A stretch of DNA of 64,000 nucleotides from Planctomycetota bacterium (GTDB lineage: Bacteria; Planctomycetota; MHYJ01; JACQXL01; JACRIJ01). Below, one piece after another: positions 22,562-52,841 of this stretch. Each line of letters opens with the position of its first letter. The first letter of the stretch is position 1. The notes beneath the pieces were generated by a model that saw nothing but the letters and a program-made list of their open reading frames with translations, was not told where the DNA came from and made no database searches. Position numbers and translations under genes: made by a program. The stretch spans positions 5,296-69,295 of the forward strand of contig JACRIJ010000048.1 in the NCBI GenBank assembly GCA_016220095.1. The letters are read 5' to 3'.

Positions 22562-22984
22562 CTACGGCTTCTGTTTCTTCATATTTGCGTAGGCTGACGC
22601 GGCCTTTTTGGCATTTATAATCTTATCAAGTTCCGAGGAGACGGTTGTTTTTGATTTTTCGGCGAGGGCTACGCATTTATTTTCTTCTTCCATAAGCCGT
22701 TTATGGGCTTCGGTTATTTTATCAAGCAGGGCGTTTACCGAGGCGCGCTGTTCTTCGGGCGCGGAATTCGCGGTTTCCAGCCACTGTTGTTTCAGCGAGG
22801 CAAGCGCCTTGCTGTCAACGTCTATTTCCACGAAGAGCGAATTCTTTTTTTCAAGCAAAGGCATAAGCTGGTTGAAGTTGCCCTGCTGGAACAGCAGGTA
22901 TTGTTCCCCGGCGGTCTTAAGGAGTTCATCGTAATTATTCAGTATTTTTGTCAGGGACCGGCAGAGGTCTTCAAACAGCGGCAT
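22562..22984 (-). CDS. FlgN-like flagellar export chaperone (tentative)
   Basis: 140 aa all-helical protein adjacent to flagellar regulators. The match is at family level only. Confidence 0.35.
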   Translation of the reverse strand: MPLFEDLCRSLTKILNNYDELLKTAGEQYLLFQQGNFNQLMPLLEKKNSLFVEIDVDSKALASLKQQWLETANSAPEEQRASVNALLDKITEAHKRLMEEENKCVALAEKSKTTVSSELDKIINAKKAASAYANMKKQKP

Positions 22985-22987
22985 AAC

Positions 22988-25966: not shown

Positions 25967-26280
25967 TATTCAATCCCCCGAAATAATTTAAGATTTACGC
26001 AGAGAACAACGTTTTTTGCCACGAAGACACGAAGGACGATTATTCCTGTCACTACGATGACTGATAAGCGATAGCTTTCCCGGCAATTTTTGTGACTTCT
26101 TGGCAAATCCTTTGTTACTTTATATTTTATAAAGTATAAAGTATAAAATTAAGAGGAATTTGTCAAGTAAAATTTTGCATTTCATGAAAAATTTATTTTG
26201 CATAACATGTTGAATTGCAGTCTGTTGTGAGACGTGTGTAGAATTTTGAAAAATTATCGGAAGTTCCGATAATACGAAGG

Positions 26281-26405
26281 AGGAAAAACGAAAAATGAAG
26301 AATGAAGGACGATACGAAAGAATGATAGAATGGCAGGATGATAGAATGTTTTGTAAAAATCTTAATTTTTAAATTCAAAATCTTAAATTTTAATGCCTGC
26401 CCCTT
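26281..26405. repeat. Dispersed intergenic repeat family R1 (gaaaaatgaagaatgaaggacg...agaatgatagaatggcaggatgatagaatgtttt...aatcttaaatttta-gcctgcccc)
   Basis: Other copies lie at 30695-30817 (inverted) and 60474-60592. Fragments lie at 22395-22440, 34585-34630, 56700-56745 and 58955-59045. Confidence 0.8.
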
Positions 26406-26509
26406 ATCGTTTGAAAACCTGTAAAACTCGTCGTTTTCCGTGTATTCTGTGTGTTCTGTGGTAAAAAATTATCGTCGTTTCGTCTTCGTGTGCATTCGTG
26501 TGTATTCGT

Positions 26510-26569
26510 GGCTAATCAGCCGTCCCGCCGTCAAATTACACAGAACCGCACAGATTACGACGAAGGAGG
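26510..26569. repeat. Dispersed repeat family R2 (ggctaatcagccgtcccgccgtcaaattacacagaaccgcacagattacgacgaaggagg)
   Basis: An inverted copy lies at 30618-30680 and a partial copy at 37731-37760. Confidence 0.8.
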
Positions 26570-26835
26570 GAGTACTCTGTTGGGATTTAATGACTGGATG
26601 ATTTGCGATTTAATGATTGAGACGTGCAACGCGTAATCGTTTACCCTGAGGCGGCCCGAAGGGTAAATCATCAAGTCATCCAGTCACCAAATCATTAAAT
26701 TTCCGAAAGGTTTCGTCGTTCAGTCGTTTACTCGCAGTTGTCAATCTGCCTAATCTGTTGCTAAAAAAAAACGGCCTGCCCGCTTTTTCAAGCAGACAGG
26801 CCGTGTAAAATTTGCGTCTATGAACGCCGCGTCAA

Positions 26836-30501: not shown

Positions 30502-30694
30502 GGCAATTATAAAGTTTTTTTTTGTAACACTGGTAAGGCGAAGGAAGCAGGGAGAAGACAGACCGGACGTCCGTGGCCCGTTTAAACGGGAACCGGGCAA
30601 CGGGAACCGGGTGACGTCCTCTCTCCTTCGTCGTAATCTGTGCGGTTCTTTGTAGTTTGACGGCGGGACGGCTGATTAGGGACAATGGAGTTAA

Positions 30695-30817
30695 GGGGGC
30701 AGGCATCAAAATTTAAGATTTTAGATTTGAGAATTAAGATTTTCTAAAACATTCTATCATCCTGCCATTCTATCATTCTTTCGTTCCGTCCGTCCTTCAT
30801 TCTTCATTTTTCGTTTC
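30695..30817. repeat. R1 copy, inverted relative to 26281-26405
   Basis: Together with R2 and R3 copies it forms a composite module of about 300 bp. That module is the inverted counterpart of 26281-26590, and the two flank the lipoprotein gene. Confidence 0.8.
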
Positions 30818-32413
30818 GGCATCAGACGCCGTCAATATGCGCGGTATGAACATCAGGCCTTTTACCACCTGCTGGGAGATGTCGTTTACCATTACGGTTA
30901 TCGGTTTTGCGCCGGTGTCCGTGAGTTTCATTATCCAGAACAGCACCGCTAATCTTGCCACGGAGGTCCACAGGAACAGTATCTGTTGGTAGCACATCCC
31001 GGCTACCTGCACGTTATAAGACTGGATGATGCTCGCCAGGCTTCCTGCCAGCATCGCTGAACTTGCCGCGGCTACGTTGGCAAAACAGGAGAATATCGCG
31101 TAATAGACCTCTTTTCCCCTCTGGGGCGAAACGCCAAGAAGCATATTGAATAAGGCCAGTTCAAGTCCGCCCCATATAATCCCCGATGAAATGTAGTCCC
31201 ACCATATAGGCAGGGTAAAGCCACGCCTTGCAATAATATACATCAGCGGATGGAATACCCCGAAATAAACTGTAAAAAGCATGACGGGCTTGTTGCCGTA
31301 TTTCTGAATCAGCCTTCCCCATATAGGTATGAAGATAATTCTCGCCACCTGCGAAGCCAAAGACATCAGGGCTATGCTTTTGTAAGTCAACGACAGGTTC
31401 TCTATCTGGAACGCGCCCCAGAACGGCCCCGCAAATCCGTTCAGAAAACCCCATAATACAATAAAGAGCAGGAGATTATTGAAGTTTTTATCCTTCCTGT
31501 ATTCCTTCCAGCTGAAAGGTTCCTGCGCCGGAAAGGTCTGTTGCGCCGGTTCCGGCTGTCTGAGTATGAAAAAAAGCGACATAAGAGACGCTATAGCTCC
31601 GGCAATGAACAGGATTGAAAGCCCGACGAATTCCAGCGTCTTAAACGAATTGCCGAATAGATCCATTATCTTATCCGTGAACGGGAAGATATCCATGAAA
31701 AATTTCCCGATGCCTTTTGACATGTCCAGAACGTGGCTCGGGTCGTTTTTGTCCAATTGGAAATTCGCAATGAAGTACCCTGCCGCGAGGGTTATGACGA
31801 ATGAGACTATGGTAACGTACATGTTTCGCCGGCCGAAATAGGTTGAACGGACTTTTTCAGGCACCAGGTCGCTCATCCAGCTTGTCCAGACGTTGCCGCT
31901 TATAGCGAGGCTTGCCCAGCTGATTCCGTAGATGATGAAGAAAATCATGAGTGCCGTGGATTTTACGAAAAAGCACGGTATGAAAGGCACGGTTATCCAG
32001 ATAAACCTTGATACGATGCCTGTGACGGCGGTGACATTTTTCCTGCTGGATATCCTGCTGAGGAATACCGACGTGAAGACCGGTATGATGTTTACGAGCG
32101 GCGGAATGGCGGCCAGGAGCCCGTAATGGAATTCATTCGCGCCTAACAGGATGATGAACCCCAGCGGGTAAATGCCGCCGGTGAGCGCCATGTGCACGGT
32201 CGCGAAACATCCTTCAATAGTTGATATCTTTAACCCGTAACGGGTATCTGTTTTCTTTGTGGACATAACCTTAATATAACGATTTAAGATGTAAGATTGA
32301 AGATATAAGGTAATACTTAAGCTATTTGAAGTAATTCCCCCCTCCCTTGATGGGAGGGGGCATAGGGGGAGGGTGAAAAACATTTTCCCCCTTTCTCTGT
32401 CCCTCTCCCGCAA
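30797..32413 (-). CDS. MFS-type transporter
   Basis: About 12 TM helices. The likely true start is the Met at 32266 (MSTKKTDTRYGLKIST...), which gives 489 aa. The upstream part of the track ORF overlaps the palindromic repeat. Confidence 0.7.
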   Translation of the reverse strand: MRERDRERGKMFFTLPLCPLPSREGGITSNSLSITLYLQSYILNRYIKVMSTKKTDTRYGLKISTIEGCFATVHMALTGGIYPLGFIILLGANEFHYGLLAAIPPLVNIIPVFTSVFLSRISSRKNVTAVTGIVSRFIWITVPFIPCFFVKSTALMIFFIIYGISWASLAISGNVWTSWMSDLVPEKVRSTYFGRRNMYVTIVSFVITLAAGYFIANFQLDKNDPSHVLDMSKGIGKFFMDIFPFTDKIMDLFGNSFKTLEFVGLSILFIAGAIASLMSLFFILRQPEPAQQTFPAQEPFSWKEYRKDKNFNNLLLFIVLWGFLNGFAGPFWGAFQIENLSLTYKSIALMSLASQVARIIFIPIWGRLIQKYGNKPVMLFTVYFGVFHPLMYIIARRGFTLPIWWDYISSGIIWGGLELALFNMLLGVSPQRGKEVYYAIFSCFANVAAASSAMLAGSLASIIQSYNVQVAGMCYQQILFLWTSVARLAVLFWIMKLTDTGAKPITVMVNDISQQVVKGLMFIPRILTASDAETKNEE

Positions 32414-32456
32414 GGGGAGAGGGGATTACTTCAAATGACTTAAATCTTACATCATA
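32283..32456. repeat. Nested palindromic element with G-quadruplex-prone core, in the divergent promoter region between the MFS gene and dodecin
   Basis: The core reads GGGAGGGGGCATAGGGGGAGGG plus CCCTCCC/GGGAGGG hairpins. The outer inverted repeats are taagatgtaagatt/aatcttacatca and tttgaagtaat/attacttcaaa. Confidence 0.7.
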
Positions 32457-32708
32457 GATTTGTTTTCTTTGGTTACGGCTGGTTTGTTTTGCCTTATCTT
32501 ACACTTACACTTTTTCTTTACAAAAAGAATCGTTAATGTTTAAATAGTTTTAATATGTAACTTCTACGTTTTTAGCCACGAGGGCACGAAGACACGAAGG
32601 ACGCATGTTTCAGTACAATGATTGACATTCGGCATTCTTTATGTAAATCTTCATGCCTTCGTGGCAATATATATAGTGGTTGATTTTTATTTTTTAGGAG
32701 TATTTTTT

Positions 32709-32912: not shown

Positions 32913-32976
32913 GTCTGAGGTTTACACCGTGATCCGTTTAAACGGGAACCGGGCACCGGGTCACGGGAAACGGAAA

Positions 32977-34627: not shown

Positions 34628-35227
34628 TTACTTATATCTTCGCAGTGTCTCAAACGGGTCTTCCATTTTTATTATAACCGGGCTGGCTGACGCCTGGAAG
34701 GCCGCGGTTATGGCGGTTCCGATGTCTATAAAAGCCTTTTGTTGTTCCGCATTAACGAGCGATTCGTAAGCGACAATGCGTTTCATTTCCGCGGTTTCAA
34801 GGCAGATGGCCTTGGAAACATCCATGGCCCTGGAGGTTTTTTCCGCGGCGGGCATGTCAAAGAAACCGTTATCCCGCATGATTTCCAGCAATCTCGCGGA
34901 AAATTTTATGTCCATTACGGATTCCAGCGGCGCGCCGAGATTCTGGAGCGGGTTTCGGGCGTACATGTGTTTATTAAGCCAATCCTGCGTCTGCATTACT
35001 ATAATGGCGCTCGTGTAGGGATTTTCGGGTTTTGTAAATGTCTGCGGGGTGGCTCCGGCGAGTTTGTTGTTATAATACGAAATCCTTACGTATTTCGGGT
35101 TTATTTCCGGAGCGGCGCCGGAAGTTGACGCGCAGGAGGCGCAGAGTATTGACAGCGCGAAGGCAAATGCGATGCCCCGCCAGTTCTTCGTTCCCGGTAT
35201 CCTGAAAAATACGTTGAAAAAATTCAT
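34628..35227 (-). CDS. Hypothetical lipoprotein
   Basis: 199 aa with a signal peptide and the lipobox ILCASC. It is translationally coupled to proS (stop and start overlap). Confidence 0.5.
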   Translation of the reverse strand: MNFFNVFFRIPGTKNWRGIAFAFALSILCASCASTSGAAPEINPKYVRISYYNNKLAGATPQTFTKPENPYTSAIIVMQTQDWLNKHMYARNPLQNLGAPLESVMDIKFSARLLEIMRDNGFFDMPAAEKTSRAMDVSKAICLETAEMKRIVAYESLVNAEQQKAFIDIGTAITAAFQASASPVIIKMEDPFETLRRYK

Positions 35228-36960
35228 TACTGTAACCGCATTTTTTCCATTAGGGTCGTATATTCATTCCAGAAGCCGTGTATTTTCACGCCGACTTCGT
35301 TTATGTTTACGGTGTATTGTTCTTTTTGCATGCGAAGTTTTACGTCAACCGTATTGCTTTTGAGCGTTTTTGAGCCGACCGTTATGCGGATGGGCATTCC
35401 GATGAGGTCAGCGTCCTTGAATTTGACTCCCGCGGACACGTCGCGGTCGTCCAGGAGCACGTCAATGTTCATGCCCTTCAATGTCTCGTATATGCCGTTG
35501 GCCGCGGCGGCTATTTTTTCGTCTCTCGGATTTATGGCGGAAATTACCGCCTGAAACGGCGCCAGATTAGGCGGCCAGATAATGCCGTCCTGGTCATTGA
35601 AAAGTTCCAGCGCGGAGGCGATAATCCTGTTTACGCCTATTCCGTAACAGCCCATTATTATCGGGTGCGATGCGCCTTTTTCGTCCAGGTACAGGGCGCC
35701 GAGTTTCTGGGAATATTTCGTGCCGAGTTTGAATATATGCCCTATTTCAATGCCGCGCGAAATAGAAAGGGTGCCGTCGCATTTAGGGCACTTGTCGCCG
35801 GTAACGCATACGCGCGCGTCAACGAATTGGGCCGGAGTGAAGTCGCGGTCAAGATTGACATTGGTTAAATGCGTATCCGCTTTGTTTGCGCCGGTGACGA
35901 AATTTTTCAGCGCCTTTACCGAATGGTCCGCGATAACGGTCATTTTCAATCCGACCGGCCCGGAGAATCCAAGGGGGCCGCCGGTGGTTTTTTCTATGGT
36001 TTCCTTATCGGCCATGGCGATATTGGCCGTATTAAGGATGTGCGCGAGTTTGGTTTCATTGACGTCATGGTCACCCCTGACAAGCACTGCAACGGGTTTG
36101 CCGTCCGCGACATAAATAAGCGTTTTGACAAGTTTCATTGCGGGCACTTTCAGGAATTCCGTAACCGCGTCAATGGTGGATTTGCCCGGGGTTAAGACGG
36201 ATTCGCTTGCTTTCAGTGGTTCCTGTTCTAAAGATTGCGGGGGCCGGCATTCGGCCTTTTCCATATTGGCGCTGTAGCGGCATTTGCCGCAGGAAACAAG
36301 CAGGTCTTCGCCGGATTCCGCGGGGATCATGAATTCCAGGGACGTATCCCCTCCCATAAGTCCGGAATCCGCCAGTACTATTTTATATTTCAGTCCGCAA
36401 CGGTCAAAGATACTGCTATAGGCCTTATACATCGCGTCAAAGCTCTTATCAAGTCCGCCTTTTGAGGTGTCAAACGAATAGGCGTCTTTCATAAGGAATT
36501 CCTTACTGCGTATGACGCCGAAGCGCGGGCGTATCTCGTCGCGGAACTTGGTCTGTATCTGGTATAGGTTGATAGGCAGTTGTTTATAAGACGAAATCTC
36601 ATTGCGTACGATATGCGTAACGACCTCTTCGTGCGTAGGGCCGAGGACCATGATTTTGCCGGTCCTGTCGGTGAATTTGCACATCAGAGGGCCGAAGGCG
36701 TTAAAGCGTTCGGATTCAATCCACAGTTCCGACGGCTGGAGCACGGGCATAAGAATTTCCTGGGCGCCGGCGCGGTTCATTTCCTCGCGTACGATGTTAA
36801 TGGCCTTGTTTAAGACCTTGAAACCTGCGGGCAGGTAGTTGTAGATGCCGGAACCGAGTTTTCTTATAAGGCCGGCGCGGATCATCAGCTTCTGGCTGAT
36901 AGTATCCGTTTCGGAAGGGTCTTCTTTTAATGTGGGAATAAGATAATTGGACCAGCGCAT
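35227..36960 (-). CDS. proS: Prolyl-tRNA synthetase (bacterial type with an editing domain)
   Basis: 577 aa. It has class II aaRS motifs, an INS editing domain and an anticodon-binding domain. Confidence 0.95.
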   Translation of the reverse strand: MRWSNYLIPTLKEDPSETDTISQKLMIRAGLIRKLGSGIYNYLPAGFKVLNKAINIVREEMNRAGAQEILMPVLQPSELWIESERFNAFGPLMCKFTDRTGKIMVLGPTHEEVVTHIVRNEISSYKQLPINLYQIQTKFRDEIRPRFGVIRSKEFLMKDAYSFDTSKGGLDKSFDAMYKAYSSIFDRCGLKYKIVLADSGLMGGDTSLEFMIPAESGEDLLVSCGKCRYSANMEKAECRPPQSLEQEPLKASESVLTPGKSTIDAVTEFLKVPAMKLVKTLIYVADGKPVAVLVRGDHDVNETKLAHILNTANIAMADKETIEKTTGGPLGFSGPVGLKMTVIADHSVKALKNFVTGANKADTHLTNVNLDRDFTPAQFVDARVCVTGDKCPKCDGTLSISRGIEIGHIFKLGTKYSQKLGALYLDEKGASHPIIMGCYGIGVNRIIASALELFNDQDGIIWPPNLAPFQAVISAINPRDEKIAAAANGIYETLKGMNIDVLLDDRDVSAGVKFKDADLIGMPIRITVGSKTLKSNTVDVKLRMQKEQYTVNINEVGVKIHGFWNEYTTLMEKMRLQ

Positions 36961-37057
36961 TTAATGAAAAACTTCCTAAAAAAGCGTAAATCTATAATCC
37001 GGCAATTATATCAAAAAAAACGCGGTATGCAAGAAAAAAAGGATGACGAAGGTAACC

Positions 37058-37284
37058 CGTCAGTAAACTGTGGCATTTCAATATGTGATTTGTGATATAA
37101 AACAAATAAAAGCGTATAGTAGCCCAGCCATTTATGGCTGGGTTTGTATGTCAAAAGCCTAACATATACGCCATTTATGGCGTTATGTTAAGGGTATGAA
37201 TGCCCTTTATGTTTTTCAATTTTCTATTCCCCAGCCATAAATGGCTGGGCTACTAACGTCCTTTAATGCCACCGTTTACTGACG
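37058..37284. mobile_element. MITE-like palindromic element with 20-bp terminal inverted repeats
   Basis: The terminal inverted repeats are CGTCAGTAAACTGTGGCATT and AATGCCACCGTTTACTGACG. A nested internal inverted repeat reads agtagcccagccatttatggctggg / cccagccataaatggctgggctact. A related partial copy lies at 56933-57050. Confidence 0.6.
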
Positions 37285-37472
37285 CCTTACTCAGGCGGCA
37301 AGATTTTCCTTGACAAACACAGGAAGGAAGTGGTAGTTCCAACTTAAGGAGGGAGTGATAGGGACGGATTTTAACGATTCACTTTTCAGGTATTATATAT
37401 TTCGAAAAATGAAAAGGCTAAGCGCCACAGAATTCCGCGTGAATCATTGAACGCTTTATGCTTTTGTTCATA

Positions 37473-37512
37473 AGCGTGGAGTGATGATTTTTCAGCTCCA
37501 CGCTTTTTTTTT
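37473..37512 (+). terminator. Rho-independent terminator on the plus strand
   Basis: A perfect 9-bp stem (agcgtggag/ctccacgct) is followed by T9. Confidence 0.6.
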
Positions 37513-37888
37513 AACTTTCTGGCCGAGCGGAAGACCGAAGAAGGTAACCGATGCCAATCTGAATCACAAAATCTTCCACCCCCTTCGGAAGTACGAAATA
37601 AATCGACGTTCTTTGTGTCCTCGTGCCTTCGTGGCTAAAAACATACTATCGGCGTAAGGGGGTAGGCTTTCCTTTCTTCGCTAAAGCTGCGGACAGCGCG
37701 GCTCTAAGTGTACTTTGGCGTTTGTACTTTGTAATTTAACGGCGGGACGGCTGATTAGCCACTAATGAACACTGATGCACACGAAAAGCTGTTGAAGCTC
37801 CCTGTTGCTTGCAGTAGTGAGCTTCAACAAGATGAATACATGGATTCCCCCCTACCCCATAACTTCGTAACCCCACAACCCCGTAACC

Positions 37889-39739
37889 CTACGGCACGTA
37901 CATGACATACGTTATGGCGGGCAATTCTATGTAATAATTATTATCCGAGGTTATATTGCGGAGCAAAGGATATTTGAAATTCCTGTCCAAAAGGCATCCC
38001 ATGGCGGCCATGCAGAACTGCCTGGTATTTTTCTGCTTTTCTTTTTTGCAGATACCTATGAGTATTTCAGCGGTTTTTACGTCGCCGAGCCGGCCCATAA
38101 GGTCTATCGCAGTCAATTTGAGTTCCGAATCGTCGGTTTTTACGTCGTCTTTCAATTCTTTATAAACGAATTTGTCTTCCCCGAGCATCATAAGGGCGTA
38201 CATGGCGCTCCGGTATATTTCCGTATCGCGCTTTTTGGATTCGCTGAGGGATTCCTTGATTTTCTTGACCGCGTCCTTGTCAGGTTCGCCGATTATTCCG
38301 AGCGCGAGTATTGCGTATTTTTTCAGGGCAGGATACCTTTTTTTCTCGGTGCATTTTACAAGCAGGCCGATGGAATCCTTATCGCGGAGCAACCCCAGCG
38401 CAAGCGCGCACGCGGCGCGCACGGCTTCAAACTTTTTTGCGTCATCGGCGATATCGGAGAGTATTTTGGAAGCCTTTTCCTTATTGCCGAGGATGCCGAG
38501 CCCGATAGCGGCAAAGCCCTGCAATTCGGGGCTTGTGCTGTTTACCAGCGCGTCCAGCAGAGGGTCGCACGCGGCCTCATTTCCGAGTCGGCCCAGCGAT
38601 ACTGCCGCGAAACATCTGGCCATGACATCGCGGTCCGTACGCAGTATTTTTATAAGCGTATTCAGGCCTTTTTCGTATTTCATAGAGCCCAGCGCGACAG
38701 CCGCACTGCGCCTGATATCCGGGTTTTCATCATCAACGGCGCCCCGGATAATCTCTCCGGCGGAATCTCCGCCTATCCTTCCGAGCGCCAATACCGCGCA
38801 TGCGCGCACGTTATTGAAAGTATCCCTTTTTTCGCTTGAGTTCAGGACGGTGCCGAGGAATTCCGTACAATCATCGGCCTTCATCATACCCAGCGCCGTT
38901 ACCGCGCAGGAGCGGACCTCCCAATCCTCGTTTTCATCCGTTATAAACTGCTTTAATGCTTCAATGGACGGTTTATGTCCCATAAAGCCTATGGCGAACG
39001 CCGCAAAACCCCTGGTAATTTTATTGCTTTTCCTGTCTTTCAGGAGTGACATCATCTTTTCAGCGTGCGATATGTCGCCGAGCATGCCAAGTCCGAGGAT
39101 AGTAAAATTCAAGAGGTCTTTTTCGCTGGCATCAAGCAATTTTTCAATATCCTGCGCGGCGAATTTATCATTGCTTTTCGCCAGGGCTATCACCGCGGGA
39201 AAACGGATTTCAGGGTCTTTATCCTTAAGGCATCCTAACAGGAAATCCCACAGGAGCTTGTATTCATTTTCGCGCACTACGCGCGCATCGTCTTTTTCAT
39301 CCAGGCCTTCGGTCTTATCAAAAGGATAAACCCTGCCCGTATCAATAAATTTATCCTGATTCAACTGCCACCAGAATTCCCATGCCGACGCCATATTTTC
39401 ATAAGACCTTTGATTGCCTGAAGGCATTTCAGAACCGGCGGAGCCTGAATCCCCTGAAGAATCGGGCGGCGCGGAAGGAGACGCGGCCGGAGAAGGGGTT
39501 GGCTGGGGCGGCTGTTCCGTAGGGGTGCTCTTGGGCGGGGCCTTGGGCGGAATGCCGGCCGGAGGCTGTGTTTTAGGCGGTTCCGGGGGAGGAGGCGGGG
39601 GCGGGTCGGCCCAGCGCGCCCTGAATTTTCCGCACGCATCGCCGCCGCAGATGCACCACGCATAGCTGTAGCCGCGCGCGGCATTAAGAACGGTTGCCAA
39701 AATTAGCACCGTAAAAAACAAACGAAAGATTTTTTTCAT
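37889..39739 (-). CDS. Exported HEAT/PBS-lyase-repeat protein with a proline-rich N-terminal region
   Basis: 616 aa with a signal peptide. The N-terminus is P-rich (PPPPPPPEPPKTQPP). About 12 HEAT-like repeats follow (RxxAxxALG motifs). It lies immediately downstream of the giant protein gene. Confidence 0.7.
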   Translation of the reverse strand: MKKIFRLFFTVLILATVLNAARGYSYAWCICGGDACGKFRARWADPPPPPPPEPPKTQPPAGIPPKAPPKSTPTEQPPQPTPSPAASPSAPPDSSGDSGSAGSEMPSGNQRSYENMASAWEFWWQLNQDKFIDTGRVYPFDKTEGLDEKDDARVVRENEYKLLWDFLLGCLKDKDPEIRFPAVIALAKSNDKFAAQDIEKLLDASEKDLLNFTILGLGMLGDISHAEKMMSLLKDRKSNKITRGFAAFAIGFMGHKPSIEALKQFITDENEDWEVRSCAVTALGMMKADDCTEFLGTVLNSSEKRDTFNNVRACAVLALGRIGGDSAGEIIRGAVDDENPDIRRSAAVALGSMKYEKGLNTLIKILRTDRDVMARCFAAVSLGRLGNEAACDPLLDALVNSTSPELQGFAAIGLGILGNKEKASKILSDIADDAKKFEAVRAACALALGLLRDKDSIGLLVKCTEKKRYPALKKYAILALGIIGEPDKDAVKKIKESLSESKKRDTEIYRSAMYALMMLGEDKFVYKELKDDVKTDDSELKLTAIDLMGRLGDVKTAEILIGICKKEKQKNTRQFCMAAMGCLLDRNFKYPLLRNITSDNNYYIELPAITYVMYVP

Positions 39740-39783: not shown

Positions 39784-42700
39784 TTATTGTCTCCTGAACA
39801 GCAATACCGCGACGAGTCCGAGGAGCGTTAACAGCATATATATATAAGAAGCCCTATTGTCTTGAGATGCCATTTGGGTTACAAAGCAGGCCGGTTGTGT
39901 GAGTTTACTGCCGGAATCCGAACTGTTGTCGGAAACCTGCGGATTCGGCGTTACCGGGTCAGGGGTTACCACGGGGTCCTGGCCGCCTGTTCCGGGATCC
40001 GGCTGGGTTGTTTTATTTGTAACGACTACCGTAACATAGCTTACGGCGCTGTAGTCAACCGCGTCGCTGACTGTAAGTTTGAACTTATAATTTCCGTTTA
40101 CCGTGGGGGTAAAAGACGGCTCCGGGGTGTCGGCATTGTAGAGTTCAATAACAGGGCCTTCCAACTGCGTCCAGCTGAACAGCAGGCCGTTTGAATAACC
40201 GGCTACTCCGTCCGAGTCGGTATCTGAATCATAGCTTCCCGAGCCATCCAGAGCTACCTGTTTTCCGGGTTTCGTGCTGATGGAATCACCGGCATTGGCG
40301 ACCGGCAGGTTATTTCCCTGCGGATTCAGCACGCTGTCAAAATCGTCTATTATTACAGTCACATTATCGTATGCCTGCACGGAATTCTGGTCTGTAACGG
40401 TCAATTGGAATTCATACAATCCCCTTGCCGGCGGCGCGAATTTAGGCGCTGAACTTGCGGCATCGTCAAGTGTAACGGAAATGCCGGTTTTCTGTTGCCA
40501 TAAGAAAGACAGGGAGCCGGCGCCGGTGCTTGTGTAACCGATAAGCGTTACGACAGGCATGTCATACATGTTAACGATACTGTCGCCGTCGGGATCTGTT
40601 TCAGGCGACACGAATGCCTCGGCAACAGGGAATTCGTCCGCAGTCTGCGGCACAACGTAAATCGTTATCTCGTCCGGCACGCCCCAGGCGGTTCCGTCAT
40701 TGACGGACAATTTATAAATCAAAGTGCCCGTTTCAGCGGCCGTAAAGGACAATATCTTATCCGTGCCAGCCTGAGACCCTGATAACGCGTTTTCTGTCTG
40801 CAGGAGTTCCCATTTATATGTCAAAGCATCGTTGTCCGGGTCAGAGCTGAAGCCTGCGTCAAGCGTAACAGTCTGTCCCAGGGTATATCTTGTGGCTGAA
40901 GTTGTAATCACGGCGGAAGGCATATGATTGGACGGGCTGTTCGCGTAAACTGACACGTAAGAAGTCATGCCAGGCGCATTGTCATCGTCCGTGACGTCCA
41001 GAGAGAAATAATAAACTCCGGTAGTTGCCGGTACAAAGGCGGCTATGGCGCCGTTACTGCTGTTTAATGTCAGGGTTTCGCTTGGGCCGCTGAGGTATTG
41101 CCACAAGTAGGTCTTTATATTGCCATCGTCATCCCTGCTCGTTGAACCGTCAAGGTAAACCGTAGTGCCGGTTACAGCGTTCCTGTCCGGACCCGCGCAA
41201 GCGAGCGGAGGCATATTGGTATCTTGAACCGCTATCGTTACATCAGCCGGCGAAGACAGGTTGATGCCGTCGGAAACAACCAATGAGAAATTGAATACGC
41301 CGCTTAATCCTGTTGTATCAAACACGGGTTTATCTGTCGCAGTGCTGTCAAGATTAGGATGGAACGTCCAGTTATACGTGAGAGCATCGCCGTTAGCGTC
41401 GTAAGAACCGCCGGCGTCAAGGGTAACCAAATCACCTTCGGTCACCGTTGTTGTTTTTTCGTTACTGATAACAGCCACGGGACTGACGTTATTTATTTTA
41501 ATTGTAACGGAATCAGGGGCGCTTGAAATGGCGCCTTCTTTTATTATAAGCTGGAAGACATATTCGCCTGTGGCCTTGCCCGTGAAAGACGGTGTTGAAG
41601 TGGAAGAACTGTTCAACACAACTTCCGGGCCTGACACCTGCGACCACTGGTAAATGATTCCGGTTTTGGTGCCGGTGGTATTGGTGCTTTTTGTGCCGTC
41701 AAGGGTGATAACGCTGGGGTCGGAGGTTTTATCCGAGCCGGCATTTGCGGCCGGGACTGCTCCCGTGTATTCATAACCGTTCGCTAATGTAACTGCGGCC
41801 TGAGACGGGCTTGTTATTACGACATTCACCTTTCCTGTATATCCTGAAGGGGTATAGCCGGTGAATACCGTACTGCTGACGAAAGTTACGCCTGTTGCGG
41901 GACTGCCGCCGAAGGTAATTGTTGAGCCGGATTCAAAATTCGTGCCTGTTATCGTAAAAAAGATATTGCCCGCGACACTGCCGTTATTCGGCGCAATGGA
42001 AGTTATTGTCGGCGGGGAGATATACGTAAACCCGTTCTGGCTGGTATAGCTCTGGCCGTCCGGGTTGGTTATAGTTACGTTAGCCTGGCCGAGCGTACCG
42101 TTCGGCGTTACTGCCGTGACAGCAGACGTGGAAACAACAGTCACGCTTGTTGCGGAACTGCTTCCGATTTTGAGGGTCAAACCGTTCTGGAAATTATATC
42201 CGCTGACCGTTATGCTGGTGCCGCCGCTTGAAACGCCGGAAGCGGGAGATATTAGCGCAATAGCCGGCGCTGTGGACAGGTCGTAAGAAAAACCCGCTGT
42301 CAGGGTAACGGCCTGCGAATCCGGATTAGTAACGGTCACATTTACGGTAGAGGCGACCGCCACGGCCGGCGTTAAGCAGGTTATGGTTGACGAATTAACG
42401 ACAGTTACGCTTGTGGCATTATTCGGTCCTATTTTAACGATAAGGCCGTTTGAAAAATTATTGCCCGAGATAGTCAGAGACGTACCGCCTGCAATCGGGC
42501 CGTGCGTAGGCGATACTGATGTTATCTGCGGAGACGGCAGGGCATTATATGTAAAACCGTTGGTCAGAAGGCCGTACTGCGTATCGGTATTAACGGCTTT
42601 AATCGTAACGGTTCCTGCGTTTCCGGCAGGTGAGAAACAGGTGATAGTGTTTGAATCCACACGCGTAACATTAGAAGCCGCGTTAGCGCCGAAAAATACG

Positions 42701-45700
42701 GCCACGCCGCTATTGAAGTTGCTTCCGGATATCGTGCACGAAGTGCCGCCTGTCACAAAGCCGTTATCAGGGCTGACAGACGTTATCTGCGGCACGGGCA
42801 GTGAATTATACGTATATCCGTTGAACAAAATATAATATTGCGCGTCGGTATTGACCACTTTAATTGAAACTGCACCGGCGTTTCCGGCAGGGGAAGAACA
42901 TGTTATGGTATTTGCATCCACGCGTACAACGCTCGCGGCCGCGTTAGCGCCGAAAAATACGGTTACGCCGCTGTTGAAATTGTTTCCCGCGATGGTGCAC
43001 GAGGTGCCGCCTGCCATAAGGCCGTTATCCGGGGTGATGGAAGTTATCTGCGGCGCCGGCGGCGCGTTGTATGTAAAGCCGTTAAACAGCAGGTCATATT
43101 GCGTGTCCGGATTGACGACCTTGACGGGAACTGCGCCGATACTGCCTGCCGGCGAGGAGCACGTAATGGAGGTGGAATCCACCCATGTTACAAGCAATGC
43201 CGGATTGGCGCCGAAGAACACGGTTGCGCCGTTTTTGAAATCCGTGCCCGTGATAGTGCATGGCGTATTTCCTGCGACATCGCCGTTATCAGGCGCTATG
43301 GAAATTATGTTCGGCATGGCTACGGGCTGGAACGTAAAACCGTTCGTAAGGGTTCCGGCAAGAGTGGAGGGATTGGTAACAACGACATTCACTCCTCCTA
43401 TGGTGCCGGACGGCGTGGTGCACGTAATAGACGTGCTGTTTACAACAGTTACGCCGGTAGCGCTGTTCGCGCCGATTTTCACCGTCGCGCCGGAGACGAA
43501 ATTAGTGCCTGTGATTGTCACAGAATCGCCGCCGTCGGAAGTGCCCGTATTCGGGGCTATTGATGAAACCGTGGGGCTGTTGGCGTAAACAAAGCCGTTA
43601 GTAAGAATATTATACTGTGTATCGGGATTTACGACTTTTATGTCATATGTGCCGGCGCTTTTTGCAGGCGCGGTAAAGGTCAGTGAAGAAGAACTGACGA
43701 ATGTCACGCCGGAGATGGAAGTAGTCCCGAAGAAAACGGAACAGCCGGAGACAAAATTCGTGCCTGAAATGGCGACAGAAGCGCCGCCGGCGATATCGGA
43801 TGCGGACGGAGCCGCAGAAGTTACGGAAGGCGCCGGGTCTGTGAAATACGTGAAACCGTTTGTCAATGACGCAGACTGCGGACCGGGAACTGTTACGGTA
43901 ACGGTCGCGTTTCCCGCGGCTCCTGAAGGCGCAGTGCAGGTTATTGTCAAAGCATTAACGACAATGATATTTGTCGCGAGGACTCCGCCGAAAGTGACCG
44001 TCGTGGCGGGATTGTCAATGAAATTAGTTCCCGTTACGGTAACGTTGGTTCCGCCGGTTGACGGTCCCTGGTTTGGCGAAACCGAGACAACCGTTATAGG
44101 AGTAGAAACCGTATATCTCCAGAAAGAGTAATTCGTATTACTGCTTCCGGCTATGGCAAAAATTGAGCCGTTGTAGTAGTTCAAGGATGCGCCGTCGTAG
44201 AAATAACCGAGATCTGCCGCAGACGCGTCGTCCCAAGTATTCAGGCTTATGGTGTACCTGTAATACCCCAGAGAACCGTTGCCGGCGACGGCAAAAATGT
44301 AATCGCCTGTTCCGGTGCATGCAAGCGAACCGCCTATGTTGACAGTACCCGGGAGATTAGCGCGTGCCAGCCAGGAATCTCCGGAAATAGAATATCTCCA
44401 GAACTCATTTACTCCGGAGCCGCGCAATACATAAATATAATCGCCTGTGCCGGGATATGCCATATCCGCCCCGTTTCCAGGAACATTGGTTATCGGAGTC
44501 CGGACGTCCCAGCTATTGGTTGCGATGGTATATCTCCAGAAATCATTAACACTTCCCTGGAGCAAATAAACATAAGTGCCTGTCGCGGTCATTGCCGCGC
44601 CGGTATTCACTAATCCCGGAACCGGTGCCATGGAAGTCCACGTGTTAAGGGATATTGAATACCTGTAGAAATCTGTTGTATTAGAACAGCGGGCGGCGTA
44701 AAGATAATCGCCTGTGCCCGGATAAGCTATTGCCCCTGCGGTAGCAATAGCCGCGGGCGTGCTTGCAAGGAATTTCCACGTATTGGTGCTGATATCATAG
44801 GCATTGAAATAAGAAGTGCTGGCTCCCCTCAGCGCATAGATGGAAGAACCCGCAATCTCGGAATCGCCGCCTGTGCCAGCCGTGAAATTTGTCTGGGAAA
44901 TGGAATTCCAGCTTAATCTTGAAGTGGAGAATCTCCATAATTCCTGAGTATTGGCGGCCCTGAAGGCATAGATGTAATCTGAATTCCCTATGGATACGAG
45001 GGTGGCATTGGTGCTTATTGTATTGGGAGGATACGATGTAGCCTGCCAATTCTGATTAATCAGGGAATATCTCCAGAAAGATTGATTGCCATTCCCCTGG
45101 AAGGCATACAGGTATTCGCTGTCGGAATTATGGAATTGCAAATAGCCGCCTGCGACAACATTGCCCGGCGCGGATGCTAATACCGTCCAGGTGTTGCCGG
45201 AAATGGAATATCTCCAGAAATCAGCCGTGGTACTGCCGTGGAAAGCGTAGATATAATCCCCTGAGCCGGGGTACGCGAGATAGCCGCCGTCAGTTACGGT
45301 AGCAGGCGCAGATGCCGGCGTGGTATTGTCCCATGTATTGGTGCCCGTGTCATAGGTCATAAATTCCGATTGGGTATTGCCCTGGAAGAAATACAGTTTA
45401 GTGCCCACGCGAACGGCGGAGGCGCCCGCGCTTAAATTTACCGGCGCATCCGCGTAAGAGGCGTCATTCCAGGAATTGCCTGAAATGGAATATCCCCAGA
45501 AAGTAGCCGTGTTGTTGGCTCTCGCGCAGTATATGATATCGCCGGACCCCGGATACAAAAGAACGGAGCCGGTGGATATTGTTCCCAATGTAACGGCAAG
45601 GGTCGAGTGCGTATTTGTAGAAATAATATATTTAGAAAAAGTTGTTGAATTGTTGCCATTCGTATAATATATCGTATCATTGCCGTCCCATTGAGCCCTT

Positions 45701-48700
45701 CCGCCCGTGCTCATCACCGCAGGCAAGAGAGCGGGTTCGGTCCAGACATTTGCCTGGATGTATCTGAAAGCGGCCCTGAGTGTGGCGGTTTGCACGTCGG
45801 GATTAGTAACCGTTACAGAAGCGGCCCATGCGGTGCCGGCGGGCGTCAGGCAGGTCAGCGTTTGCGAATTCACAAACGCAACGCTGGTCGCGGATGTGCC
45901 GCCGATTGTAACTGTTGCGCCGTTTACGAAATTATAGCCTTTGATTGTAACGGACGATTTTCCTGCGGACACGCCTTCTTCCGGAGTAATGGATGTTACA
46001 TAAGGTTTACTTACGAATGTCACGGCATTAGAAGAGGTATAAGTCAGGGAACCGTTACTGACCGTAATATCCGACAGTCCCAGAACGCCTGCGGGAACGA
46101 CGACCTCCAACCTCGTTGAATTTATAAAAGTAACGCTTGTGGCATTTATGGCGCCAAATTTGACCGTTGTAGTCGGGGTGAAATTAGAACCGTAGATTAC
46201 AATAGTCATTCCTCCGTTTACGGGAATGGTTGTCGGGAAGACCGTTGTAATTGAAGGAGTAAGGCCTTCAAAAAGAAGCCTGTATCTCGCAAAATACAGG
46301 CCGCCGCCTCCATTTATAGCGTACAAGTAATTATCATTTCCGTATGTCAAAAATCCGCCGGTTGAATAGGTGTAAGGGGCCGATGAAAGCGAAACCCAGG
46401 ACTTTGTAGTCTTGTAATATCCCCAAAACCCGGTCGTTGTATTGCCTTGAAGCGCATATATTACATCGCCATATCCGGGCCATGCCATGTCAAAACCGGA
46501 CGTCTCAGCAAATGGAACCGATGACTCTATAAGCCAGGTATTTGAAGCAATGTCATACGAATAGAAACCGGTCTGGGAATTACCAACCGACAAATATATT
46601 TTTCCATTGCTGTAACACAAAGCGCCGCCGTCGTTTACCACAAATGGCGTGGTTGCGAGGGATTCCCACTTGTTCTGGGATATGACATATCTCCAGAAAT
46701 ATAGTGTTCCGCCGCCGCCCGTCGCGTAGATGTAATCGCCGGTTCCGGGATAAACCGAATCCGCTCCGTAGCCGACAATGGTTGGCGCATCAGTCAAAGA
46801 AGTCCAAACGTTCGTTGTCATGTTGAATTTTGCAAATGAACTACTGCCATAACCTCTTAGGGCATATAAATAAGTAGAATCCACCTGCGTTAAGGATGAT
46901 CCATAATAAGTTCCCCAGGGCGTGGCGGTCATGGTAGTTGCGGTGTTGGCTGTGATATCATATTTATAAAAATTGGTTCCACCCTGCCCGTACATTACGT
47001 AAATCTTTTTATCGGTTGTTCCGCATATATTGCCATAGCTCATAGAACTGGGAATCGGCGTAAGCTTGGACCATTTCTGGCTCGCGAGATAATACTTGAA
47101 AACATATTGAGTGCTCTGAGCCGGGATCAGCATAATGGCATTCAGGCTTGCGATGTAGGCCATTTTGCCGCATTGATATACGCCTACAGGCGTGGCGGTC
47201 AAACTTGTCCAGCTGTTGCCTGTAATATTATAACGGGCAAAACCCGTAGTGTTGGAGCCCTGCGTACAGTAAATATACCCGTCGTTACCGTATGCCTGAT
47301 AAGCGCCGTAATAAGTTGAAAACGGCATATTTGCCATTTGCAGCCAGGAGTTTCCGGAGATGGAATACCTGTAATAGGTATTCGTATTATTGTGAGTCAC
47401 ATATATAAAATCGCCTGAACCCGGATAGTTGCCGCTTGCGCCGTAATTAAAAGTTGCGGTGAAATTAGTCATTGCCAGCCAGCTGTTGCCGGAAATCGAA
47501 TACCTTAGAAACGTATTCGTGTTGCCTCCCGGGGCGCAATAGATAAAGTCGCCCGAACCGGGATAAACCAGAAAACCTCCCGTAGTTACGTTACTGGTGC
47601 AGGCAGTCATTGTGTCCCAGGTATTTGGTCCGATATTGTAACGGTAAAATGTACTGGTGCCGCCGCCTCTTGTCAGATACAAGGCGGTTGTTGAAGGCAC
47701 ATATACCATATCAGCCCCGATGCCGCCTGTTGTTGTTACGGGCGTAAGTAATGTATAGGCATTTGAGGTAAACGAATATTTATAGAAGGCTGAAGAACTT
47801 CCAGGATAAGGCCAGAAATACGTGAAATCCCCTGTGCCGGGATAGCAGAGCGTTAAACCCTGATAGGCATTTACGGGAAGCAGGGCCATCTCGTTCCATG
47901 AATTCACGGCTTCAAATTCAAAATAATTCGTCAATGTCGCGTTCTGTAAATCCGGATTGGCGACGGTCAGGCTGGCAATCGCAAGGCCGGACGGCGCGGT
48001 GCAGGTTATCGTAAAGGGGTCAACTACCAGTACTCCCGTGGCGGAAACGCCTCCGACAGATACGGTTGCCCCGCTCACAAAATTTGCCCCGGTTATGGTA
48101 ATCGGAGTACCGCCGCTTGCCACCAAAATCTGCGGCGTTGCGGAAGTCAAATACGGTTTGCTATCGTAAGTGAAGCCGCCGACAAGGGTGGACGTCTTGG
48201 TATTAGGATTCGTTATTACCACATTGGCGGCGCCTGCTGAACCGGCCGGAATCGTCACAGTCAGGCTGATAGAACTGTTGAAAACTATGTTGGTCGCGGC
48301 CTGGCCTCCAAATGTGAGCGTAAGCCCGGGATAAAAACCGGTACCTGTAATAGACACCGGACTGTTGCCGGAAGTAGGCCCTGTTGATGGATTAATCAGC
48401 GATATTGACGGCGTTGCGCCTGAATCCAAGACGCAGTATTTCGTGATGTACGGGGTGTTATTGCCGACTAATGAATAAATATAATCATTTACTCTCGCAA
48501 AATCAGTAACCTGATAGTATTTGAAAGGCGTATTGGTCAGCGTTGTCCATGCATTAGTGGTTGTGGAATAATACCACCAGGCGTGATTTGTCGTGCTTGA
48601 CGGGCCGTAATTTGCACCGGTGGCATAAATTTTATCGCCAAACCCGGCATAAACCATTTGAGGGTAATACCCGAAAGTTGACGGGGCATTTGCCAATTGC

Positions 48701-51700
48701 GTCCATGCATTCAGGGAAATAGAATACTTATAAAAAGTCTGCTGGCCGTTTGAACCGAACATGTACATGAAATCGCCCGTGCCGGGATAATGCAGGCCGC
48801 CTCCGTAGTTAAGAGTGGCGGATAAAGAGGACATTACAGACCATGAATTTGAAGTAATATCATATTTATAGAAATCGCTGGAACTGCTGGCCCGCGCGCA
48901 ATATATGGCGTTTGCGGACGATACGTAAGCCAATCCGGCGCCGTAAGACGCGGTGTTTGGAAGCGCTGTCATCGTGTCCCAGGTATTTGTGGAAATAGTA
49001 TATCTGTAAAATGTTGTTGTCGCCGTTCCGCGCATCAAATAAATCTTATCCGTGCCGGCCAGCACCATATCCGCGCCGTAATTCACGGTGGCAGGTATGG
49101 CGGCTAAGGTTGCCCAGGTATCGGTGGCAGTGGTGTATTTCCAGAAATTCGTAGTGCTTGCGCCGCCGCATACGTATAAATTGGCTGAACCGTCATACAA
49201 TATATTTCCGCCTTCAGCTATTGATGCCGGGGCCGGGGCCACATCAACCCAGTTGTTTCTGGAAACGGAATACCTTACAAAATCCCTCTGGTAATATGCG
49301 GGCATGGAGTACAGATAATCGGAATTGGAAATGGAAAGCAATGTCCCGCCTTCCCAGTTATACGACATTGGCTGAGGTTGCATGGTTTCCCACGAATTAA
49401 GCCCCATGGAATAACGATAGAAGTACGCGCCGCTGCTAGTGGCATTTCCGCGTAATAGATAAAAGTAATTTGTCCCGTACGCCCATGCAAGCGAACCGCC
49501 GTACCGGATGGTGTTGGGCGTTGATGGCAACGTCTCCCACGTATTGCCGGCAATGGAATATCTCCAGAAATCCGTAGTATTGGCCCCGCGCGTGGCATAC
49601 AGGTAATCGCCCTGGCCGGGCCATACCAGGTCGCATCCGCCTTCCTGCTCGTTCGGGGTGCTGGCCAATTGGGCCCATGTATTGCCGGAAATTGAATATC
49701 TCAACAAGAGCTTTCTGTTTGCCGAAATACTGGCGTGGGTGCCTAATGTCGCGTAAATGTAATCGCCGCCTAACCATGCCATTGAACATCCGTAGTCCGC
49801 CAGGTATGTCGCGTTAAGAACTGTCGTATCCTGGGGGTCAACATCGTTCCACGTATCAGTAGATATCTTGTATCTCCAGAAGATGCCGGTCTGATTGCCC
49901 CTGAAGACATAGATATAGTCACCGTTCGCGAAACACATGCTTGAAGCGCGGTATAATAACGTTCCGCCGGGCGTGGTCGCGCAAACCGTCCATACGTTTG
50001 TTGACAGGCTGTATTTCCATAAAGTCGTAGTATTGTCTCCACGCAAGGCATAAATAGTATCTGCGCCGTCATAAGCCATTGCCGAGCCGTCATTAAACCA
50101 ATTGGGCGCGCAGGCAGGCGTATCCCACCCGTCCACGCTTACATATCTGAAAGCAGTTTTTAAAGAACCGTTGAAAGGGCCGGGATTGGTTACGGTTAGA
50201 TCCACGGACCAGGTATTGCCGGTTCCGGCCGGTGTCGCGCAGGTAATGCTCGTTGAGCTGACCCTGACGACGTTAGTGGCGGAATTCGCCCCGAATTTAA
50301 CCGTCACTCCAACCGCAAAATTCTCGCCTGTTATGGTAGCGTTAGTGCCGCCGGTATAAGAACCCGAATATGGCGATACTGATTTTACGATAGGATCGGT
50401 CTTGTAGGTAAACCCTCCTGTAAGCGTATTGGAAAGAGGGCCTGGGTTGGTAACAACCACATTCGCGGCCCCGGCTACTCCGGCCGGTGCGGCCGCGCTG
50501 ATTAAACCGGTATCCAGGAAAGCAACGTTCACAGCCGCAACGCCGCCGATAGTAACCGTTGCAGTCGGATAAAAATTCTTGCCGATTATCTTAACCGTGG
50601 TCCCGCCGGCCGTGCCGCCTTCATTAGGGAATATGGCTTCAGCCGTTGGAGTTGAACTTTCAAAAACCTTGTATCTGAAGAAAGATGCCGTGGTATTGCC
50701 GGCAAAACAATAGATATAATCGTTGGCGAATGTTAACGATATTCCGACATTATTAAACGTAAATGGCGAAGAACCCATTGTTGCCCATGTGTTGGTCGTC
50801 ATATTGTAACGATAGAATTCGGCCGTATTCTGGCCTCTCGTGGCATAAAGATAATTGCCGTATTTAGGATATATGAGCGCTCCACCGGACCCTATTGTGG
50901 CCGGAGTGGAAGCGAGAACGCTCCAAGTATTGCCGGAAATGGAATATCTCCAGAATTCGGAAGTGGCCGCGCCGCGCAGGGCATAGATATAATCTCCGGT
51001 GCCCGGATACGAAAGCGATGCGCCGGCCTCAACTACATTAGGCGTAAGCGCAAGCTGAGACCATGAATTTCCGGAAATGGAATATCTCCAGAAACTTGAG
51101 AAACTGCCGCCGCGAAAGGCGTAAATGAAATCGCCGGTTCCTGGATATAACAAAAATCCGCCGGTAGTTACCGTTCCGGGCGTTGAAGTCATGGTGGACC
51201 ATGAATTTGAGCCGACCGTGTATTTCCAGAAATTAGATGTGGAATTGCCGGCCATTACAAAAAGATTGGTGCCGTCGGAACAGATAGCGCCGCCTGCGCC
51301 GATAGTCCCGGTCGGCTGGGCCAGGCCAGTATTCCATGTGCCCGCGGACGTGTCATAGCGCCAGAAATCCGCCGTAGTACTGCCTCTAAGCGCATAAATA
51401 TAATTTCCCGAGCCGTAATACGACAATGAACCGCCTGCAGTGATTGTATTGGGCGCGGCAGGAATTGCACCCCACCTGTTATTGCTGATGGAATACCTTA
51501 AAACAGTATAACCCCAGTTTCCCTGATTAAAATAGAACCAATCAGTGCCGGGAACGTACACTATATCTGCGCCGCCTGCTGTGGATATCGGCACATTTGC
51601 CATATCGGACCAGGTTGTGGTGGAAATCCGATATTTTTTGAAACCATTGCTCGGCCAATTCGTACAATAAGCGTAAACATAATCGGGGTCAGACCCGAAT

Positions 51701-52792: not shown

Positions 52793-52841
52793 ATATATTC
52801 CTCCAGAAATAATGCAAAACCTTCTCTATAATATAGTATAA

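Follow-up and report, generated by a model that had tools for sequence, protein, structure and literature searches.

The stretch of DNA analysed here, referred to as the window, comprises 64,000 nucleotides (64 kb) from a metagenome-assembled genome (MAG) of a groundwater Planctomycetota bacterium (assembly GCA_016220095.1, contig JACRIJ010000048.1), and its intergenic DNA contains a palindromic element in two versions. The larger one (copy 1, 37052-37290) occupies part of a 928-bp spacer that separates a HEAT-repeat gene (37889-39739, minus strand) from proS (35227-36960, minus strand). The smaller one (copy 2) lies between a split AbiEii-like open reading frame (ORF) and tRNA-Arg(CCT) (56745-56819, minus strand), the latter being about 107 nt from the outer end of copy 2. 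Both loci are extragenic, with neighbours on each side transcribed in the same direction, and, judged against the flanking genes, the repeated unit has opposite orientations at the two loci. The core of each copy is formed by tagged stem-loops, which we read as repetitive extragenic palindromic (REP) units, accompanied by an outer inverted repeat whose 20-mer had initially been taken for the terminal inverted repeat (TIR) of the element. The ProS protein of the window is 100% identical to MBI5359858.1, with the next best match at 63% anywhere and at 58% among GTDB species representatives; with the best outside ProS at only 63% identity, there is no close relative for comparison. The following features make up the two copies (means of detection in brackets).

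37052-37077, plus strand: left arm of the outer inverted repeat, GTAACCCGTCAGTAAACTGTGGCATT (inverted-repeat search and 20-mer count)
37078-37118, plus strand: left linker, including a 30-nt AT-rich stretch (37078-37107) found neither in the right arm nor in copy 2 (alignment)
37119-37142, plus strand: left REP unit, GTAG tag (37119-37122) and hairpin A, CCCAGCCATTTATGGCTGGG (37123-37142) (tag and hairpin scan, DNA folding)
37160-37190, plus strand: hairpin C, TAACATATACGCCATTTATGGCGTTATGTTA (repeat search, folding)
37190-37217, plus strand: hairpin B, AAGGGTATGAATGCCCTT, then TATGTTTTTC; terminator-like on the strand reading outward to the right end
37230-37253, minus strand: right REP unit, hairpin A' (37230-37249) and CTAC (37250-37253, GTAG on the minus strand) (inverted-repeat search, tag scan)
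37265-37290, minus strand: right arm of the outer inverted repeat, GTAAGGCGTCAGTAAACGGTGGCATT on the minus strand (inverted-repeat search and 20-mer count)
56927-56952, plus strand: outer repeat of copy 2, GTAACCCGTCAGTAAACGGTGGCATT (20-mer count, alignment)
56964-56987, plus strand: REP singlet of copy 2, GTGG tag and CCCAGCCATTTATGGCCGGG (tag scan, folding)
57011-57047, minus strand: hairpin B of copy 2 (57011-57026) with a minus-strand T-run, then a hairpin C remnant, GCTATAAATAGC (57036-57047) (alignment)

Read from the outer end inward, the unit begins with the outer repeat; a linker of 11 nt leads to the tag (GTAG or GTGG) and hairpin A, and hairpins B and C follow beyond a T/A-rich spacer of about 22 nt. 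Copy 1 contains one full unit on the minus strand, to which are added at the left end an inverted outer repeat, the 30-nt AT-rich insertion and a tag with hairpin A; the linkers of its two arms are thus unequal (41 vs 11 nt). The nested internal palindrome reported in the preliminary description is real, with inner arms (37117-37142 vs 37230-37255) complementary at 26 of 26 positions. Each of these arms includes the self-complementary 20-mer CCCAGCCATTTATGGCTGGG, i.e., hairpin A, which has the layout CCCAGCCAT-TT-ATGGCTGGG, a 9-bp stem and a DNA folding energy of -9.6 kcal/mol, with GTAG immediately 5' of it at 37119 (plus strand) and 37253 (minus strand). The two tagged hairpins form a doublet whose tags point outward and whose starts lie 107 nt from each other. 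Between them, hairpin B (AAGGGCAT-TC-ATGCCCTT) together with its T-run, read outward, has a terminator-like score in both copies, and hairpin C (ACGCCA-TAAA-TGGCGT with an extended stem) has the same top, GCCAT-TT-ATGGC, as hairpin A.

Copy 2 (56926-57047) is the reverse complement of 37170-37291, with 88% identity over 122 nt. It had been presented as a rearranged and partial copy next to tRNA-Arg; the copy is real, partial and near the tRNA gene, but not rearranged, since the alignment resolves it as a single inverted unit, in which the TIR is followed by hairpins A and B and by what is left of hairpin C. The right arm of copy 1 has the same TIR sequence as copy 2. Hairpin A of copy 2 has one A·C mismatch on the plus strand, which pairs as G·T on the opposite strand, and the top of its hairpin C is changed from GCCAT/ATGGC in copy 1 to GCTAT/ATAGC, a compensatory C>T/G>A pair. 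The homology between the copies stops at 57047, 20 nt short of the adjoining ORF.

Hairpin A links this element to a widespread family. The pattern CCCAGCCATWWATGGCYGGG has at least 120 exact matching loci in the metagenome collection, where the TIR, of similar information content, has none; the statistics given here refer to 80 of these loci. The pattern had no match in viral contigs. The 5' tags at the hairpin are ATAG (91), GTAG (3) and TTAG (1), in strict orientation, the consensus of the tag region is TGA(A/C)AATAG, and there is no conservation past position -9. In 16 of the 80 loci, a gene for a Y1 (IS200-like/RayT) transposase, a 150-aa ORF, is found within about 50-250 nt of the hairpin. 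The ORF matches Pfam Y1_Tnp PF01797 (E about 1e-28) and the NCBIfam model IS200 (74 bits, cut-off 55). These hairpin-adjacent Y1 proteins share 28-100% mutual identity, yet the same hairpin type accompanies all of them. Their close homologues carry the JGI name 'REP element-mobilizing transposase RayT' and the NCBI name 'IS200/IS605 family transposase', and their NCBI taxon labels are mostly Verrucomicrobiota.

The hairpins of this family share their outward-tagged orientation with the window element. Three loci (L107, L109 and L171) have the Y1 gene enclosed by two outward-tagged hairpins, 566-624 nt apart, and nine gene-less doublets in the same orientation, with 89-147 nt between the hairpins, occur among the 80 loci; the 107 nt of copy 1 fall within that range. 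On the 3' side of the Y1-bearing elements, an inner hairpin, about 22 nt of T-rich spacer, hairpin A' and the tag succeed one another as they do in the right half of copy 1. Two further loci, L095 and L115, have the same module order as the window, namely hairpin A, a C-like hairpin and a B-like hairpin, with stems that are altered but still paired; L095 is the closest relative found for the inner module of the window (75% over 95 nt). In a covariation set anchored on [AG]TAGCCC only, eight or more of the nine stem pairs are formed in 57 of 99 distinct 26-mers, and at least 15 compensatory stem variants are present (e.g., CAT/ATG, GCT/AGC, CTT/AAG, ACT/AGT and GAT/ATC). No such tagged hairpin was seen in 930 kb of unrelated loci used as a control. 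In a named Verrucomicrobiota MAG, three independent assemblies agree in the genomic neighbourhood of the Y1 gene, tagged stem variants of the hairpin flank it, and this gene behaves as a resident, RAYT-like gene (RAYT, REP-associated tyrosine transposase). As a separate observation, positions 1-330 of L095 (JABUBN010002309.1) form a tandem array of mosaic units of about 190 nt, each with two different GTAG-tagged hairpins (CCCGGACGTTCACGTCCGGG and CCCAGCCATAAATGGCTGGG) in addition to B-like and C-like hairpins.

The window element itself combines a tag, a stem-loop, an inverted doublet, an extragenic site, compensatory variation and the absence of a target-site duplication, all traits of REPs and of REPINs, the latter being two inverted REPs plus a spacer, thought to be mobilised by RAYTs (PMC3337134). 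Because the inner hairpin is a GTAG-tagged REP of the kind that flanks Y1 genes in many other bacteria, an ordinary miniature mobile repeat of the REPIN type is the most likely identity. We assign a probability of roughly 0.7 to the reading in which copy 1 is a REPIN-type doublet of GTAG-tagged REPs and copy 2 a decayed single unit, both mobilised in trans by a Y1 transposase. Copy 1 would accordingly consist of two outward GTAG-tagged REP hairpins enclosing two smaller hairpins, all inside an extra outer inverted repeat. The mover would be a small IS200/RayT-type Y1 (HUH) tyrosine transposase acting in trans, not a TIR-binding DDE transposase; such an enzyme would recognise the tagged hairpin in single-stranded DNA, cut beside it and insert the element without duplicating the target. 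A cognate Y1 gene would be located elsewhere in the source genome and its product would have copied the element, possibly with the outer GTAA...TTAC repeat as part of the copied unit. The internal palindrome, secondary in the preliminary description, is by its sequence relationships the diagnostic part of the element.

Known systems offer close parallels. A survey by Di Nocera et al. 2013 (PMC3733652) describes REPs as extragenic palindromes of 20-40 nt, most of them with a GTAG tag, frequently arranged as dimers with tags outside and 20-100 nt between units, and situated between genes of the same or convergent transcription direction; it records GTAG REPs from Planctomycetes and Verrucomicrobia, with GTGG predominant in the Opitutus terrae GTAG-20 family, and REPs joined to unrelated stem-loops or to long TIRs. 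By these descriptions, the window element resembles the GTAG REPs of Planctomycetes-Verrucomicrobia-Chlamydiae (PVC) bacteria (O. terrae, Rhodopirellula baltica; GTAG-20/21 and 'HH' dimers) in its 5' GTAG (GTGG in copy 2) followed directly by a GC-rich stem of 9 bp whose loop is short and T-rich, in the outside position of the tags, in the distance of 20-100 nt between units, in same-direction gene neighbours and in G·T stem pairs. It differs in its host, an uncultured groundwater lineage with a ProS at most 63% identical to any other. Like the REPINs of Pseudomonas fluorescens SBW25 and their RAYTs (Bertels & Rainey 2011; PMC3116915, PMC3337134), it is extragenic, non-coding and without a target duplication, and relatives of its hairpin symmetrically flank a Y1 transposase gene; unlike them, it has a hairpin sequence unrelated to that of Pseudomonas, two extra hairpins in the spacer and an extra inverted repeat of 20-26 nt outside the tags. 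The REP/BIME (bacterial interspersed mosaic element) system of E. coli with its TnpA-REP (PMC3479197) likewise has a Y1/HUH enzyme recognising a tagged stem-loop in single-stranded DNA, and its repeats can also affect transcription termination and mRNA stability, whereas the Y1 proteins adjacent to hairpin A are IS200 equivalogs by score and lie under the curated RAYT cut-off.

Several observations weigh against a REPIN-type origin. There are just two extragenic loci, with three REP units, in the 64 kb. No transposase or integrase is encoded in the window, and tblastn with a Y1 protein found no Y1 gene in it; the association with such genes comes from the 16 metagenome loci, the three fully flanked genes and the named Verrucomicrobiota contigs. 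The hairpin-adjacent Y1 proteins belong under NCBIfam IS200 and reach only 26.8 bits with the curated RAYT model (cut-off 80 bits), so that RAYT is meant here functionally, not as strict family membership. At the named Verrucomicrobiota loci, tagged hairpins occur only beside the Y1 gene, with none dispersed over 20 kb, and high copy number is therefore no general property of the hairpin A family. Eight contig ends were available for comparison from independent Logan contigs of the organism (SRR12113407), whose sequences agree with the window at 100% identity; three of these ends (36546, 37480 and 63627) could be tied to no repeat. Finally, the outer inverted repeat of 20-26 nt is placed 11-41 nt outside the GTAG tags, which the canonical REP model does not account for, because conservation in the metagenome family ends about 5 nt outside the tag.

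The other five contig ends point in the opposite direction. One contig, L090, ends at 56928, at the outer end of copy 2 and one base inside the GTAA terminus, and four more end in or beside repeats (32605, 46121, 59024 and 60557). The terminal 30-mer of L090 is not common to copy 1, so an assembly-graph branch at 56928 would imply a structural variant or one additional copy at the least. We regard the contig ends as an indirect, no more than suggestive hint of extra copies.

The outer repeat deserves separate consideration. Its 20-mer, CGTCAGTAAACNGTGGCATT, occurs three times in the window (37058-37077, plus strand; 37265-37284, minus strand; 56933-56952, plus strand), against an expectation of 0 in shuffled sequences. 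The TIRs were announced as perfect in the preliminary description, which also mentioned one mismatch; the latter is correct, the arms of copy 1 matching at 19 of 20 positions with a single T/G difference at position 12. Past two mismatches, the repeat is prolonged by four more bases to GTAA at 37052 and 37290, giving 26 nt with 23 matches (88%) and the general form GTAA(CC/GG)CGTCAGTAAAC(T/G)GTGGCATT; all three outer ends open with GTAA(CC/GG)CGTC. Neither the genome collection (185,579 species-representative genomes) nor the metagenome collection contained an exact match to the TIR, and in viral contigs the seven matches to a shortened 17-base version, representing three distinct sequences with unrelated flanks, were dismissed as chance. 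Searches of the 227-bp element against plasmids and phages by blastn gave nothing meaningful, and a protein-database search with the concatenated six-frame translation of both copies gave no matches. The outer inverted repeat is, on these comparisons, apparently specific to the source MAG. No target-site duplication was found at the GTAA boundary (outer 8 bp tgacgaag vs tcaggcgg) or at the 20-bp TIR boundary (flanks ggtaaccc vs ccttactc, with a trivial TA reading only). Y1/HUH transposition generates no target-site duplications, and the proposal that their absence would refute a mobile element does not apply for this reason. A 13-nt direct repeat, GACGAAGGTAACC (37045-37057) and GAAGAAGGTAACC (37537-37549), was considered as the ends of a 492-bp insertion and set aside as possibly due to chance, about 0.2 such pairs being expected in the region (an estimate); its first copy abuts the left TIR.

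These data bear on the view of the element as a classic MITE (miniature transposable element with inverted repeats), i.e., an internally deleted derivative of a DDE insertion sequence (IS) whose transposase binds the TIRs of 20-26 bp. Such an origin is suggested by the near-perfect arms and their prolongation to GTAA, by the resemblance of the GTAA(CC/GG)CGTC ends to those of the IS66 family, GTAAGCGTCCGG and GTAACCGTCCGG (PMC12888890), by the size of about 230 bp and absence of coding capacity shared with DDE-type MITEs (Correia/NEMIS, Nezha and RUP), and by the independent contig that stops at a GTAA terminus. In contrast to those elements, no target-site duplication, matching IS or TIR match elsewhere was found: the 8-bp duplication is lacking, there is no DDE transposase in the window and no parent IS with these ends was found, the linkers of the two arms are very unequal, and it is the inner tagged hairpin, linked to Y1 transposases, that is widely conserved, rather than the TIR. 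We consider this origin unlikely, and in its IS66-like form we retain it only as a low-probability rival, given the missing 8-bp duplication and transposase. Broadly taken, the earlier suggestion of a non-autonomous transposable element is probably correct, whereas the TIR-defined kind of MITE probably is not.

A second way of accounting for the outer repeat keeps the Y1 transposase and enlarges the unit: the whole composite of GTAA-ended outer repeat, GTAG-REP and two inner hairpins would be copied, with Y1 acting 11-41 nt outside the tags, possibly coupled with horizontal spread of the REP-transposase pair. A precedent is provided by the 'TIRtrons' (PMC3733652), i.e., TIR-flanked Y1 genes and composites of REPs with unrelated stem-loops, in which degenerate GTAG units are copied along with the long inverted repeats to which they are joined; they differ in that no Y1 gene is situated between the TIRs of the window. 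We hold this extended version to be doubtful, but if true, it would bridge REP-flanked and TIR-flanked Y1 systems.

Both strands of copy 1 fold far more stably than shuffled sequences (RNA z about -12, DNA z -13). As this is a consequence of the inverted repeats, it is not independent evidence for an RNA. The very stable predicted structure nevertheless brings up a structured small-RNA gene, as had been envisaged, or a cis-regulatory leader or attenuator of proS. Hairpin B with its T-run does resemble an intrinsic terminator, two stem substitutions give G·T on the outward-reading strand, and REPs are often transcribed according to the survey cited above (PMC3733652). Set against this, tRNA-Arg was the sole match in the 64-kb window at the gathering threshold of Rfam (Rfam 15), a relaxed scan of 36900-37900 gave chance-level matches only, far under the cut-offs, the two strands fold equally well, as inverted repeats trivially do, and the orientation of the unit relative to flanking genes is reversed between the loci. 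A promoter-like extended -10 site, TGATATAAT, can be read on the minus strand at about 37007-37015, ahead of proS; the element is upstream of this likely promoter and would therefore be outside any leader. Upstream of proS in 80 other genomes, nothing resembling the element, no empty site and no conserved structure was found. A dedicated RNA gene or leader is thus very improbable.

The surroundings of copy 1 have further signals. At 37044-37062 (minus strand), base pairing between the start of the left TIR and its flank (TGACG...CGTCA) creates a hairpin of terminator-like form with T7 behind it, and a promoter-like TTGCAT-N16-TGATATAAT (about 37000-37035, minus strand) comes directly afterwards, before proS. 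As a side effect, hairpin B with its T-run and this TIR/flank hairpin with T7 might act as insulators between the HEAT-repeat gene and the proS promoter. On the other side of the element, 37300-37515 (plus strand, opposite to both neighbours) includes, one after another, a TTGACA box (37310), an AAGGAGG site, an ORF of 31 codons with a GTG start (37354-37449) and a strong hairpin that resembles a terminator and has a T9 run (37472-37514). These could represent a small gene or small RNA; Rfam matches overlapping 37300-37515 are at chance level, far under the cut-offs.

The position of copy 2 allows another interpretation, in which a larger island has integrated beside tRNA-Arg and ends at the unit, copy 1 being a two-ended remnant of the island termini. 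The GC content, about 0.49 up to about 56 kb, is 0.41 to the right of it, copy 2 is situated between tRNA-Arg and accessory genes (the split AbiEii-like ORF and an AAA_14/DUF4143 ATPase), and L090 terminates at the outer end of the unit. However, no integrase or transposase is present in the window, the unit is on the 5' side of the tRNA with no partial tRNA repeat, no second TIR occurs farther right within the window, copy 1 resides amid housekeeping genes without a shift in composition, and the homology to copy 1 stops 20 nt before the adjoining ORF. We judge an island terminus quite unlikely and continue to prefer the REPIN-type repeat. The low-GC segment itself (56000-64000) looks like an acquired island, with no integrase seen in the window; it contains the AbiEii-like ORF (57067-57621 and 57612-57833, apparently frameshifted), a 368-aa ORF without known family, the AAA_14/DUF4143 ATPase and a pair of paralogous TPR membrane proteins.

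The window contains other repeats. A second GTAG-tagged hairpin family, GTAG(A/G)GGTGAACC-loop-GTTCACCCTGTT, is represented at 1239-1286 (minus strand) and 21534-21581 (plus strand), the two copies being 81% alike and both preceded by GAGTTACGG; one follows flhB, and the other separates the genes of a histidine kinase and a sigma-54 response regulator. At least five more repeat families, each present in 2-4 copies, make the intergenic DNA a mosaic; they include types with AAAATCTTAAATTTT, GAAGGACG/CGTCCTTC, CACGAAGGCACGAGG and CCGTTTAAACGGGAACCGGG, and several of them share the spacer of copy 1. These further intergenic repeats are located as follows.

First part: 26274-26800, 30560-30820, 32565-32603, 32921-32974, 37603-37785
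Second part: 53061-53137, 53577-53615, 56501-56576, 56706-56740, 58945-59051, 60459-60600

An imperfect palindrome of 155 nt (32304-32456, 73%) with C-rich/G-rich arms, CCCCCTCCC...GGGAGGGGG, overlaps an MFS transporter ORF at its annotated 5' end, and smaller palindromes are present at 19929-20006 and 58945-59028. A 539-nt direct repeat (52460-52995 and 53848-54383, 76%) is situated just upstream of a gene for a 4210-aa protein, and each of its copies encodes a protein of 71-72 aa (MNK..CPPFTTED..CVRGKPMAKEV...YIFTDGYLVGWQKTEL). The 4210-aa ORF (39784-52416, minus strand) has many internal repeats, among them units of about 46 aa at a spacing of 135-140 nt and, at 42455-43237, three tandem units of 261 nt, and bears resemblance to giant surface proteins. 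Additionally, a complete-looking cluster for flagellar export, hook and basal body (1288-19568 and 20137-25495) encodes FlhB, FliR, FliP, FliO, FliN, FliL, MotAB, FlgE, FlgD, FliK, FliJ, FliI, FliH, FliG and FliF, followed by a sigma-54 two-component pair and FlgN.

For the annotation of the source genome, the analysis means that long near-perfect intergenic palindromes are to be read as Y1-linked repeats of the REP/REPIN type, not as small-RNA genes or DDE-type MITEs, and that a missing target-site duplication is what is expected of them. An uncultured groundwater lineage of Planctomycetota joins the hosts of GTAG-tagged REPs, already known in Planctomycetes and Verrucomicrobia. The 20-nt REP stem of this MAG is, base for base, common to a very widespread RayT-like family of soil, peat and lake metagenomes, and it also occurs beside Y1 genes in contigs labelled Verrucomicrobiota and Limnocylindria (NCBI label). 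Strict vertical inheritance has been proposed for REPIN-RAYT systems; a stem shared across phyla could instead reflect horizontal spread of the REP-transposase pair. The shared stem provides a handle on the persistence or movement of REP-transposase pairs between PVC bacteria.

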